Shown: positions 4,858-59,974 of the stretch, piece by piece | Position numbering within the stretch: position 1 is the stretch's first letter | How the letters are laid out: each line of letters opens with the position of its first letter | Assembly (NCBI GenBank): GCA_964016885.1 | Contig: OZ024748.1 | Span: forward strand, 19,964,001-20,028,000 | Length of the DNA stretch: 64,000 nt | Source of the DNA: Eledone cirrhosa | Taxonomy: Eukaryota | Direction of reading: 5' to 3' | Notes under the pieces: generated by a model | What the model was told of the DNA's origin: nothing | The model's input: the letters and a program-made list of their open reading frames with translations, nothing else | Databases searched by the model: none | Translations under genes and position numbers: made by a program

Positions 4858-5204
4858 CAATATATAAACAGTTTTATAAATAAATTTGACATACCTTAAG
4901 ATTTTACAACTTCCATTTAAAAAGTTGTTATGGTAGTGAAAATGTTAGGGACATTTAATATCGTAAAATACTCCAAAACTTGTTGAGTGCTTTTATATCA
5001 GTTATAAAATATTTACTCGTTGTAACCCAACAATTTTAAATAAAACTTTTGCATATATATATATATATATGCAGAGATTATATTTAATTTGTTGGGATTC
5101 AACAAGCTAAAACATTTTTATAACTGATATAAAGCACTCAATAAGTAAGTGGAGTAAATATTCAATATATTAATAAATGGAAATTATATTTATAAAACCA
5201 TAAC

Positions 5205-5270
5205 TATTTTATTATATATATTTCAAGGGCAACCAAGGCAAATTTTGGTGCGCTTTCATCAGATAAAATA
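5205..5270 (-). ncRNA. Minimal type I hammerhead ribozyme in the left arm of a fold-back (arms 5213-5298 / 5335-5420)
   Basis: Minus: tattttat-CTGATGA-aagcgcaccaa...ttggttgccctt-GAAA-tatata-TA-ataaaata, with an 8-bp perfect stem I. The mirror copy on plus lacks the 3' strand of stem I. Confidence 0.75.
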
Positions 5271-5432
5271 CAAATTTGTTTTATAAATATTGACATACAC
5301 GCGAACCTCAACCGTTAAGGTTGTCTTTATGCGGGTATGTCAATATTTATAAAACAAATTTGTATTTTATCTGATGAAAGCGCACCAAAATTTGCCTTGG
5401 TTGCCCTTGAAATATATATAGCAGGAAGAGGG

Positions 5433-5468
5433 TCTTAACGTTTCGGACGTTAGTCCTTCATCAGAAGA
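5433..5468 (-). ncRNA. Minimal type I hammerhead ribozyme (classic Penelope type)
   Basis: Minus: tctt-CTGATGA-a-ggac-taac-gtcc-GAAA-cg-TT-aaga. Confidence 0.75.
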
Positions 5469-5689
5469 AAAAAAGGGGAAATAAGATAGATTGATGGGAC
5501 GGGCGGGTTGGAATTGGAAACAATGTCTTTAGATCAAAATAAAAGGTCCATTCATGTTGACATCTCTTATATATATATATATATATATATATATATATAT
5601 ATATATTTACACATAGCCACACACACACAAATATATATATATATATATACATAATTACACACATAAACACACACACACATATATACATG

Positions 5690-5740
5690 CTTTCCTGATG
5701 ATTTCCTCCGAATGAAACAGTTCTAGTCCTGTGGAAGCCA
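5690..5740 (+). ncRNA. Hammerhead-like variant (same family as 16735-16783)
   Basis: gctttc-CTGATGA-tttctccgaat-GAAA-cagttctag-TC-ctgtggaagc. Stem I forms only with a bulge. Confidence 0.4.
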
Positions 5741-5915
5741 TTTCAATATCAAATATTTACACTCTGCTATGCATTGAGTACCTTACTTACTGTGGTTAAC
5801 CCCCGATGATTGAACCCAGGATACAAACACACACATGTATATATACACATACATATATATCTATATTCATATATATATATATATTTACACACACACACAC
5901 ACACATATATATATA

Positions 5916-6552
5916 TCATCATCATCATCGTTTAACGTCCGTGTTCCACGCTTGCATGGGTTTGGATGGGAGTTTTCCCACTTGAGGCAAGAGTGGTTGT
6001 CTTGCTCGCATAGGACTGTCTGGCGGGTTTTCTACAGTTGGATGCCCTTCCTAACACCAACCACATTTACAGTGTGGGTCTGGGAGGTTTTTACCGTGTT
6101 GCCTACACGGCCACATTACAGCGTGGACTGTGTGTTTTTTTGTCGTGACACCTACACGACCTCATTTGTTTCGGCCTGGATGTTGTGGTACCAACATAAC
6201 TTTACATTGAAAGGGGTGGTGTGGATGGGGTGGGGGTAGTGAGACGGGGGTGTATTTTGTTAGAGGTGCCTACTGACTGTAGTAGGTTTTACTTTGTATT
6301 TAGGTAAGGCGGGTCTTCTCTATTACTGAGTACCGCCAAAGATCTCGGTCCAGTGACATTGTCTTGGAGAGGTGTAAGTGTGTGAGGTCGGAATTTATCA
6401 AGTCGTCCCAGGTTTTTCTGGGTCTGCCTACTATTTTTATTGCCCTGCTCTTTTTTATACAGCTGTCGTCTTTCATGCGTATCACGTGACCATACCAACG
6501 TAGTCTTCTCTCGAGTAAACAACATCTGATCCCTCTTATTTCTAATTTTGCC
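5916..6552 (-). mobile_element. 5'-truncated RTE-clade LINE 3' end
   Basis: Encodes RRLRWYGHVIRMKDDSCIKK...GRPRKTWDD...DRDLWR, a typical RTE ORF C-terminus, then a 3' UTR ending ggacgttaaacgatgatg. Same family at 43498-43905(-), 46835-46983(+), 54846-55380(+) and 55500-55966(+). Confidence 0.85.
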
Positions 6553-56876: not shown

Positions 56877-56961
56877 GGTCTGACGAGTTTTTGATTCCAG
56901 AGTCGGGCCATATCGATACAGATCGAATCTTGAGCTGATCAATAGCAAAACGCGCGTCACC
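56877..56961 (+). ncRNA. Hammerhead relic with long branched stem II (GAAA mutated to AAAA)
   Basis: ggt-CTGACGA-gtttttgat...atcaatagc-AAAA-cgcgcg-TC-acc. The paralogue at 47605-47690 keeps GAAA but has lost CTGACGA. Confidence 0.6.
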
Positions 56962-57029
56962 AATCAATAAATATAATGAAGGCTTAACAAATCGCCCTTG
57001 TATTATTATTATATATATAGATAGATATA

Positions 57030-58039
57030 TGGTTCTATAGAAATAGTAGACACTTTCCGTTACTTGGCTGACAAAATCAGCAGTGGAGGAGGGTGTTCTG
57101 AAAGTACAGTAGCCAGAGTTAGAACAGGATGGAAAATGTTCAGAGAGCTACTACCGCTGTTGGCACAAAAGATTTTTCTCTATAAATGAAAGGTAGTTTG
57201 TATGATGCTTGTATACGGACAACAGTGAGACATGGGCATTGTGTGTAGACTAGCAGCACAGATTGGAAAGGAACTAAGGATGCATGCGCCGATATAATAA
57301 TAATATACATGAGCGGCAAAATGTAAATGAACTAAGTGAGAAATTAGGCATAAGAGGGATCAGATGCAGTTTACTTGAGAGGAGATTGCATTGGTTTGGT
57401 CATGTGATGCGTATGAAGGATGACAGCTGTATAAAAAAGTACAGAGGGATCAAAATTGATGGAAGCTACAGTGTAGATAGTCCCAGAAAGACCTGGGAAA
57501 GAAGTGATAAAAGCTGACCTTGCACACTAGCACCTCTCTGAGACAATGTCAAAGGATCAAGATCTTTGGCGCTATGCAGTAATACAGAAGACCCACCTTC
57601 CCTTGCATACAAACTTAAACCTACAGTCAGTAGGCACTTCTTAACCCAATATACACCCCACATCCCACACCTTAATCACACACTTCTACACCATCCTCCC
57701 ACTACCGCCCACACCACCCTTTCTCTGTAAAGTTATGTTGATACCACAGAACATCCAGCCTACACCAAAGTGGTCGGGTAGGTTTCATGACAAAAAGCAC
57801 CCAGTCCACACTGTAAAGTGGTCGTGTAGGAGACATGGTAAAAAGCACCCAGCACACACTGTAAATGTGATTGGTGCTAGGAAGGGCACCCAGCCATAGA
57901 AAACCATCCAGAAACAGTCCTATATGAGCGAGACATGGTCACCTGACCCAACTTGCCTCAAGTGGGACAAGCCAGTCTAACCAATAACCCATGCTAGCGT
58001 GGAAGATAGATATTAAATGATGATGATGATGATGATGAT
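57030..58039 (+). mobile_element. RTE-clade LINE 3' ~1 kb, decayed
   Basis: EIVDTFRYL...GGCSESTVARVRTGWKMFRELLPLL, then ELSEKLGIRGIRCSLLERRLHWFGHVMRMKDD, 3' UTR and (ATG)n tail. Confidence 0.88.
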
Positions 58040-58420
58040 GTATATATATATATATATATATATATATATATATATATATATAGTAAGAAACACAGTAAAT
58101 CGTGTGTCTAATATTACTAGGGTTGAAAGACCACATTTGTTTGAAATATTTAACCATGAAGCAGACAGAATGATAAAATAAAATAAAATTATATTATACA
58201 AACCGCCTCAATAACAATTATTGGTTTCAGTAAGAGTTATTAACTCTAACTTTCATTTATATTTCGGCTCCCTCAAGAAGTGAGCTTATTAAGTTGCGTG
58301 TGTTGGACTGTTGTTTCTAACCAATACACTCATACCACTGTTGACTTACAGCACACGAGGTGATGAATTCATTTTTCTGTGTGAACGTTGGTACTAGGTG
58401 TTTGTCGCATTTAATTAGAT

Positions 58421-58495
58421 TCTCTTGCTGATGATGCCCATGGATTATCTGTTGCAAACACACTCAGGGCGAAACAGATTAATCTGTTCGAGAGA
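58421..58495 (+). ncRNA. Type I hammerhead ribozyme inside a fold-back element (arms 58081-58221 / 58497-58637)
   Basis: tctcttg-CTGATGA-t-gccc-(27 nt)-gggc-GAAA-cagat-ta-atctg-TT-cgagaga. 7-bp stem I and long palindromic stem III. Confidence 0.82.
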
Positions 58496-59276
58496 TATAA
58501 TTGTTATTGAGGCGGTTTGTATAAAATAATTTTATTTTATTTTATCATTCTGTCTGTTTCATGGTTAAATATTTCAAACAAATGTGGTCTTTCAACCCTA
58601 GTAATATTAGACACACGATTTACTGTGTTTCTTACTACATATATATTATTATTATAATGCTTGGTATTTATACTTTGAGCTTACTGATTACAGGGTTTCA
58701 GTAAGAGTTATTAACTCTAACTTTCATTTATATATATATATATATATATATATATATATGAGTTGCAATGTTACTAATACAAAACTGTAGCAACCTTTGC
58801 CTTTCCCAAGTACAACATCCTTTGTGCCATATAAGGAGAAGAGGTTGGCATGGCATGGACAACTCATGGTCTTCACAAAACATCTCTACGCTCCCAGGCT
58901 TGCATCTTAAAGATAAATGTTCTAGAAACCCAATGTTAGGACATTACTGTGTCTCAAATATCTTCAGTAATCTGGAACATGTATGTATGGTCCTGATAGA
59001 GTTGTAGGGCCGCCATATTGACATATAGCATTTCTTGCGCATTTTAAGCCTGGTGGAGCCCATCCCTTGCCAGGCCTGAATACAGCAGATTTCTTCCAGA
59101 GAAAGATGGAAAGTGAAAGGAAATGAGAAAGAGATATAGAGAAATAATCAACCCCAGTTCTAGACTAGTACTTTTTTTTTATCGACCTCGAAAGGGTGAA
59201 AGGCAAAGATGACTTCAGCGGGATTTGAACTCAGAGAGCAAAGAGAGGGAACAAATGCAATAAATTATTATCCAAC

Positions 59277-59462
59277 GTGGATTGGCAGTATCAGTAGAGG
59301 GTCGGACGCCATGCTTTCCAGCATAGTTACGTCCCTTTACGATCTGAGTTCAAATCTCGCCAAGGTTGACTTTGCCTTTCATCCTTACGGGGTCGATAAA
59401 ATAAAGTACCAGTAATGCACTGGGTATTTGCTGGCCTTGTGCCTAAAGTAGAAACAATTATT
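59277..59462 (+). mobile_element. SINE family 2 with target-site duplication
   Basis: aattattatccaacgt on both sides (~59263-59278 and ~59456-59471). Confidence 0.85.
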
Positions 59463-59974
59463 ATCCAACGTTCTAACAATTCAGCCAATTCACTGTCTGG
59501 AACATATATGATGACTTTCTAAAGGTTCCCACAGATGTGACAGAAAAGATCTATAAAGTGATATACCTTGAATTTCATGAGTCAGTGTTCCATTTGAAAT
59601 AAGCAGCAAAAATGTATTAAATGTTGAGTCAATAAATCACTTGTTTACAAGATATATAATTTTAGTTTTAGTTCTAATCCACACAAGAATTTTTCAGCAA
59701 TCATACACGTCATGCTTGATCTGAAAGCTATTCTCTATATTTTTCTCCAGACATGAATAAAATATACATCCACACATATACATACATACATTTATATACA
59801 TATATATATATATATATATATATAAATATATATATATAAATATATATATATATATTTAAAGGTTAAACAAGGTTCAATGAATAAATCAAAGAATGAGTTT
59901 TACAATAGATTGGAAGCACTCAACATTACTGAATCTTAACCATCTACTAAGTCAGGGTATGTCATGCATCATCT

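Follow-up and report, generated by a model that had tools for sequence, protein, structure and literature searches.

A bulged hairpin, duplicated in the leader of Hydra-clade Penelope-like elements, lies beside the ends of their insertions in Eledone cirrhosa

Why does one eight-letter box stand, always with the same polarity, shortly before (TA)n tracts in repeats that look dissimilar? The question arises from a stretch of 64,000 nucleotides (nt) of the genome of Eledone cirrhosa (assembly GCA_964016885.1, contig OZ024748.1, positions 19,964,001 to 20,028,000), which we will call the window. An initial annotation of the window had proposed that the box TTGAGTRC belongs to a 3' terminal cassette of unrelated elements, between a hammerhead ribozyme and the (TA)n target. 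We find that the box is no linear signal of an element's end; its letters form the 3' strand of a hairpin with a bulge, RCTC-stem-loop-stem-NN-GAGYRC. Judging from motifs, the carriers are the 3' ends of about seven families of Penelope-like elements (PLEs) of the Hydra clade. In these elements, two hairpins stand in the leader, and the box is probably the 3' strand of hairpin 1; each hairpin likely positions one start of reverse transcription about 5-6 nt upstream. The clade, its elements and their tails are known; the hairpin is a genuine cis element of this clade for which we found no earlier description.

The 11 exact boxes are all where they had been reported (4983+, 5134-, 5774+, 15890+, 16871+, 17179-, 25548-, 32520+, 45218+, 45746+, and 59916-). 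Dinucleotide shuffling predicts 4.09 in the window, and 1 of 100 shuffles reached 11. If a tract is defined as at least five units of (TA) or at least three units of (TATC), then a tract starts 42-87 nt past the end of the box in 11/11 cases (50-95 nt from its start), so the reported spacing of about 50-90 nt at a fixed polarity also stands. With a cut-off of four units, the first tract is 35-90 nt downstream of 10 of the 11 boxes and upstream of 2 of the 11. For comparison, a tract lies at 35-90 nt for 12 of 222 shuffled 8-mers and for 17.6% of positions that have a tract no more than 300 nt away. Over 600 kb of genome taken without selection, we found a tract at this distance for 17 of 20 boxes with an upstream ACTC and for 2 of 10 boxes without one (Fisher p=0.001; background 16%). 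Hence the enrichment survives a control for the local density of (TA)n (85-91% versus 16-18%). Across the genome (3.0 Gb, one strand, counting once per box only), 58,251 boxes have (TA)5 40-70 nt downstream and 7,246 have it on the upstream side; the reversed controls gave 1,159 and 2,474.

The carriers are less diverse than had been claimed. The 11 sites reduce to about seven families (4983/5134; 5774/16871; 15890/45746; 17179; 25548; 32520; 59916), with 45218 a diverged relative of the 17179 family, as judged by eye. They do comprise more than one repeat family. We label the families by letters. The distance from box to tract is constant inside a family and varies among families.

The hairpin consists of RCTC, a variable inner stem and loop, a 2-nt bulge, GAGY, and an unpaired RC. 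In 10 of the 11 boxes of the window, ACTC lies 13-21 nt upstream. The remaining box (59916-59923) has no ACTC partner because the tailed arm of an inverted insertion is cut inside the hairpin. The letters vary: GAGT alternates with GAGC, and the bulge may be TT, TC, TA, or CT, while GAG and the final C are nearly constant. Genome-wide, the outer pair is A-T in 119,138 cases (control, 5,701) and G-C in 10,613 (control, 509), which is about 21-fold over the control for both. The mismatch A-C is seen 3,293 times (control, 1,778; 1.9-fold). Because both pairs far exceed their controls and the mismatch does so much less, we conclude that the stem has undergone compensatory changes. In the inner stems of 22 family representatives, which were chosen without a pairing rule and with 15 singleton clusters omitted, 65 of 88 positions are paired; the mean of the shuffles is 45.5, and 0 of 5000 shuffles did as well. 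Pairing is best with a 2-nt bulge. With a bulge of 1 or 3 nt, 108 and 286 of 5000 shuffles did as well, and bulges of 0 or 4 nt gave nothing. G-U exceeds A-C in the stems, by 16 to 5 in a hand count of the family representatives and by 7 to 4 in the metagenome hairpins described below, which favors the sense strand as the paired strand. A stem extended into the final RC was rejected, as it gave no consistent pairing.

The near matches to the box at 15383, 32756, 33161, and 62011 are variant hairpins; the one at 58674 has no partner strand and does not count as one. The proposal of an upstream hammerhead also holds in part. A regular expression finds hammerhead-like cores on the same strand at 5262-, 5695+, 32372+, 32668+, and 62144-, and no hammerhead in the window reaches Rfam's gathering score. 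Sorted by E-value, the Rfam scan of the window is dominated by matches of microsatellites to microRNA models. Its sole hammerhead among the 150 matches listed is below threshold (15615-15659), and a (TA)n tract separates it from the box at 15890. No Rfam family matches over the hairpin at the gathering score in the window, and in five relatives, the hammerhead was the only match (E <= 1).

To which elements does the hairpin belong? A search of the genome for GIY-YIG endonucleases returned mostly Neptune-type elements, which lack the box, plus one frame with a CxCX5C linker. This frame led to the young family H (65,341 candidates; the 150 that were scored are 98-100% identical). At the junction between the pseudo-long terminal repeat (pLTR) and the open reading frame (ORF), family H has a hammerhead-like core, end site 1 followed by hairpin 1, then end site 2 followed by hairpin 2, and the start codon. 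The second hairpin was predicted from H and was then found in read-through copies of A, B, C, E, F, G, and I. Hairpin 2 sits 71-101 nt after hairpin 1 in these families and in H, and 40-80 nt separate hairpin 1 from end site 2. A Hydra-type ORF starts after hairpin 2 in A, B, C, E, G, and H.

The assignment to the Hydra clade was made from protein motifs. Families A, B, E, and H have uninterrupted frames of 709-728 amino acids (aa). In A and B, frames of 713-719 aa have YRDD at ~347 and YIG at ~603, which corresponds to a reverse transcriptase (RT) whose GIY-YIG endonuclease lies at the C-terminus. A and B also have an RWK-type motif around residue 35 (RWR or RWI) and DKT at about residue 115, and C, G, and H have RWR; the K of the motif is thus replaced by R or I. 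The C-termini of A, B, and H contain the CxCX5C linker, CxxC, and CxH, and the GIY-YIG core has no internal cysteine pair. The proteins of A and H are 50% and 53% identical to that of B. The predicted fold (predicted local distance difference test, 93) is most similar to telomerase RT (E 4e-8, TM-score ~0.3) and also matches other RTs; when the Hydra proteins were compared by sequence with Pfam and PDB, no meaningful match resulted. In A, C, E, and G, a canonical hammerhead core precedes hairpin 1. In the stretches inspected for F and I, we recognized no hammerhead core. The cores of B and H are altered: by eye, family B (L254) appears to have UUGAGAA for CUGAUGA, and family H (L115) appears to have CAGAAGA. 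We take the UUGAGAA core to be a swap of the C3-G8 pair for U3-A8.

Other origins were considered. A Helitron-like DNA element presumably does not apply, and was dropped once RT ORFs were found. Neptune-type elements (CX2-5CxxC linker, CCHH) were rejected as carriers because their copies in the genome have no box after the ORF or the hammerhead. The annotation had been right that the box is part of a polarized cis element, shared across families, of PLEs that insert into (TA)n, and that it lies downstream of a hammerhead; it had named Naiads as an example of the autonomous PLEs to check. Naiads have an N-terminal endonuclease and a CxC domain. They lack canonical hammerheads, according to the accessible text of Craig et al. 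2021 (PMC8557442); such cores occur here and the endonuclease is C-terminal, so we rejected a Naiad origin in favor of the Hydra clade.

Full-length copies of family B also form head-to-tail arrays (L254 and L255, at C1 ~91.47-91.49 Mb and ~437.20-437.21 Mb). Their period of ~3.54 kb is above the clade's length of <3 kb, and the excess is 3' untranslated region. The arrays hold several uninterrupted frames of 717-719 aa and are likely young source loci. Another tandem array, at C1:14235092-14253185 (L191-L194), is made of units with a family B-type hairpin and box. It is a candidate satellite or retrozyme-like derivative.

The ends of the insertions track the two hairpins. Of 647 non-overlapping copies, 75 read through the region, 164 end without a tract, and 408 (of the 572 that do not read through) end in a tract, that is, by insertion into (TA)n. 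In 377 of these 408 cases, the end is -2 to 14 nt before a hairpin, which is hairpin 1 for 186 and hairpin 2 for 191. Of the 101 tract-bordered ends in unselected DNA and the window combined, 91 fall in that interval, 42 at hairpin 1 and 49 at hairpin 2, as compared with a chance rate of 0.157. At the 112 junctions that could be anchored cleanly, 6 uncopied nt are possible in 89 and 5 in 87, and microhomology with the tract of at least 1 nt is present in 108 (mode 3). So the (TA)n junction is about 5-6 nt before a hairpin 2 that was not copied, and hairpin 1 marks the tail-less end. Since ends cluster before one hairpin or the other, the 50-90 nt between box and tract is the spacing of the family's hairpins.

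The two kinds of end are also paired. In inverted pairs with outward 3' ends, one end is at site 1 and the other is at site 2 in 97 of 100 cases. The same holds for 25 of 26 pairs in unselected DNA and for 25 of 26 pairs in family H, which was picked by protein. Independent choice of ends would give about half. The inverted pairs inside the window are listed in Table 1.

We then asked if the hairpin is present in distant relatives. The family B protein has 2,027 homologs at E <= 1e-20 among 7,997 scored. From metagenomes, 77 loci were picked by protein alone (34-47% identity); 51 included the N-terminus, and 40 had a leader of at least 150 nt. The hairpin occurs in 33 of the 40 leaders and occurs twice in 23 of them, 57-83 nt apart. 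The controls gave 0 (reversed), 0 (within the ORF), 4 (antisense), and a mean of 0.74 (shuffles). In 50 of these hairpins, 117 of 150 inner-stem positions are paired, as compared with 76.3 in shuffles (0/5000), and only at a 2-nt bulge. The usual form in metagenomes is GCTC...TT GAGCAC, which implies that the box with GAGT is a local variant that has been compensated. Inner stems and spacers differ in these distant relatives, but the motif is kept. Few of these contigs allowed a check of the end positions, which is not decisive. In published consensi, we see the hairpin by eye at the 3' ends of Hydra-2_Amil and Hydra-2_Ajap and twice at the 5' end of Hydra-1_Ajap (coral and sea cucumber). Hydra-1_Crog and Hydra-1_Amil have a degenerate hairpin only, and by eye none was recognizable in Hydra-1_Obim. 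We found no description of the motif in the literature that we searched; subscription papers, Repbase, supplementary figures, and bioRxiv supplements fell outside that search and may bear on this.

In most other respects, these families resemble the Hydra clade as portrayed in the accessible text of Craig et al. (PMC8557442). Shared features are a single ORF of ~710 aa with RW[RI], DKT, YRDD, CxCX5C, GIY-YIG, CxxC, and CxH; a canonical hammerhead core in the pLTR of some families; (TA)n as the target; partial tandems; truncated arms in inverted orientation; and a one-sided tail. In contrast, the tails here are 71-101 nt instead of 30-40 nt, the unit of family B is 3.5 kb whereas clade members are "generally" <3 kb, and some of the hammerhead cores are non-canonical. 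That text describes no conserved hairpin, although one can be made out by eye in the consensi that were deposited.

The closest experimental system is PAc, the Poseidon element of Anolis carolinensis (Frangieh et al. 2024, PMC11167929; we rely on the accessible part of that report). In PAc, as in the model below, both strands of an AT-rich target are cut and extended, and the tail is bounded by two internal start sites that follow the hammerhead. But the starts of PAc are described as non-homologous to the cut DNA, and that part of the report mentions neither a repeated motif nor one-of-each pairing. Here, two copies of the motif precede the start codon, each is 3' of its putative start site, and there is short microhomology. 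A third comparison is with non-LTR retrozymes (10.64898/2026.07.22.740005, in its accessible part), which are likewise short, non-coding, hammerhead-bearing pieces related to the pLTRs of PLEs. Retrozymes form tandem arrays, whereas the window's copies are truncated ends that lie dispersed and match elements with an ORF.

In telomerase, retrons, and DRT reverse transcriptases, a structured RNA beside the template sets where copying starts or ends. In contrast to those RNAs, the putative signal here belongs to the mRNA of the element itself, comes in two copies, and would act for both ends of the target. We propose a model in which the duplicated RNA hairpin docks two reverse transcriptases per transcript, each of which primes from one cut end 5-6 nt before its hairpin; we give this model about an even chance of being correct. 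The element's protein would bind each hairpin on the sense RNA, and its GIY-YIG domain would cut both strands of the (TA)n target. Each DNA 3' end would pair over 1-4 nt with UA-rich RNA immediately 5' of one hairpin and would then be extended. The strand primed at hairpin 2 would copy hairpin 1 and become the tailed arm, and the strand primed at hairpin 1 would become the tail-less arm. The two cDNAs, often truncated early, would be joined head to head. Two copies of the enzyme on one RNA, as a putative dimer, could account for the strict pairing of one end of each type. Protein binding to the RNA hairpins, priming by annealing, and the use of one hairpin per target strand are the parts of the model that we suppose from sequence patterns.

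Several observations count against this account of the hairpins. Isolated hairpins fold weakly (-2 to -8 kcal/mol), and z is below -2 in only 4 of the 11, one of which is in another register. The families are related, so the shuffle tests overstate their independence. Hairpin 2 of family A is an unbulged GCAC/GTGC stem with the end 7-9 nt away. No read-through copy of family D was found (three chance hits), no downstream ORF was seen for family I, and the ORF of family F is broken. The end counts leave out the 164 tract-less ends among the 647 copies (38 of these come from an unrelated repeat inside the reference for F), and only 112 of 377 ends could be cleanly anchored. Among the metagenome loci, 7 of 40 leaders have no motif, and 11 of 51 loci were dropped for short leaders. 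In PAc, the starts are in a single AC-rich stem-loop that is 111-118 nt inside the ORF (PMC11167929). Finally, a Neptune-type family (L075, L152, and L296) has two 3' ends ~45 nt apart, one per inverted arm, without the motif, which is therefore unnecessary for tails in general. The tail of this family contains a different small hairpin, and no consistent read-through copy of it was found.

Could the association be explained more simply? That it arises by chance, or from a single ordinary repeat family next to plentiful (TA)n, we consider practically negligible. (TA)n is dense here, and the 11 sites do collapse to about seven related families. But the control for local density does not remove the excess, the A and H proteins are far diverged from B, and the motif is retained in distant relatives. 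The idea of the initial annotation, that an enzyme reads a linear TTGAGTRC near the 3' end and measures 50-90 nt to the junction, would account for the strong polarity and enrichment, and for how little GAG and the final C vary. It is very improbable nonetheless, and we abandoned it. Boxes without ACTC lose the association (2/10), and the letters of the box covary with their partner. Furthermore, the distance tracks each family's hairpin spacing, the junction lies at the uncopied hairpin 2, and about half of the ends have no box at all.

Two other explanations accept the hairpin and give it another role. The hairpins might act in DNA, as part of the element duplex, of a cruciform, or of single-stranded cDNA: the endonuclease would bind them and cut about 6 nt upstream, thereby trimming or resolving an intermediate, possibly one that arose through self-priming with antisense template. 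There are precedents in the accessible parts of three reports. The tail has been proposed to result from endonuclease-mediated resolution (PMC8557442), recognition by the D. virilis endonuclease depended on the tail (cited in PMC11167929), and head-to-head palindromes have been read as antisense self-priming (PMC3846280). Also, the positions alone fit RNA and sense-strand DNA alike. We nevertheless consider a role in DNA unlikely, given the excess of G-U, which favors the sense strand; the junction microhomology of 1-4 nt, which fits priming; and the internal starts of PAc on sense RNA at the limits of its tail (PMC11167929). Slightly less likely still is that the hairpins direct RNA processing, with a cut about 6 nt before each hairpin, made by a nuclease or by the RNA, to give two RNA 3' ends that are copied as in long interspersed nuclear elements (LINEs). 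The fixed register and the invariant unpaired RC after the stem would suit a cleavage signal. However, independent RNA ends should give about half same-type pairs, and only 3 of 100 were seen; no Rfam family covers the hairpins in the five relatives; and PAc uses uncleaved RNA (PMC11167929).

How PLEs choose the template and its start site, and how the one-sided tail and the inverted arm arise, is a question with one in vitro study. If our model is true, then it describes a two-ended form of target-primed reverse transcription, which would explain both the one-sided tail and the inverted arms. The hairpin would also be a portable 20-nt signal for where copying starts in the closest relatives of telomerase, and so it bears on the evolution of RT-RNA recognition beside telomerase. 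In this genome, it is a marker for over 100,000 repeat ends that are otherwise unclassified. The fixed register to both ends, the one-of-each pairing in 97/100, and an apparently intact young element make the mechanism directly testable.

Table 1. Hairpins, hammerhead-like motifs, and inverted insertions in the window
Feature	Positions	Strand	Remarks
Inverted two-armed insertion, family C	4743..5058	.	Tail-less minus arm stops before hairpin 1; tailed plus arm stops before hairpin 2
Hairpin 1, family C	4970..4990	+	Has box 4983-4990 as 3' strand; tail runs to (TA)9 at 5053
Hairpin 1, family C, other subfamily, decayed	5134..5155	-	Folds in another register; tail shares the (TA)9 tract; same-strand hammerhead core starts at 5262
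Type I hammerhead-like motif, family A	5690..5737	+	Predicted from sequence; core starts at 5695; approximate limits
Hairpin 1, family A	5761..5781	+	
Hairpin 1, young family H	15343..15390	+	GCTC/GAGC form, long loop; tail end 15429
Hairpin, family D	15869..15897	+	No read-through copy found
Hairpin 1, family A	16858..16878	+	Tail end 8 nt short of hairpin-2 position
Hairpin 1, family B (commonest form)	17179..17205	-	
Hairpin 1, family E	25548..25574	-	Plus-strand tail-less arm ends at 25649
Hairpin 1, family F	32499..32527	+	Weak inner stem; hammerhead core 32372; tail end 32593
Variant hairpin, CT bulge	32742..32763	+	89 nt past hammerhead core at 32668
Variant hairpin, GCTC/GAGC	33161..33188	-	Tract 70 nt downstream
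Hairpin, diverged relative of family B (by eye)	45200..45225	+	(TATC)n next
Hairpin, family D	45726..45753	+	Best fold, z=-3.66
Inverted insertion, family G	59847..60089	.	Tailed arm cut within hairpin 1; plus arm stops before hairpin 1
Inverted insertion, family E	61954..62396	.	Tailed minus arm and tail-less plus arm
Hairpin 1, minus arm of the family E inverted insertion	62011..62037	-	TA bulge; hammerhead core 62144

Some other parts of the window are related to these elements. At 5053-5070, the tailed ends of two subfamilies of C face each other over one (TA)9 tract; probably, one of them inserted into the flank of the other. At 5371-5464, a copy of the hammerhead is broken at TATATA of its own stem III and adjoins a minus-strand element that bears a hammerhead. 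Hammerhead-like cores without an exact box at the expected distance are found at 48412, 48781, 56114, and 58428 (plus strand) and at 45541 (minus strand). These are candidates for other PLE clades or for tail-less ends. Additional hairpin variants or tailed ends, beyond those in the table, are at 47121 (-), 43189 (-), 17356 (-), 25770 (-), and 32915-33019 (+).

The window also contains traces of other repeats. Short frames at 6300-6680 (-), 33593-33955 (-), and 60976-61323 (-) resemble pieces of LINE reverse transcriptases, which they may be. Positions 713-770 (-) and 56489-56546 (+) are identical tRNA-like heads (31.2 bits in Rfam) and probably belong to a tRNA-derived short interspersed nuclear element.

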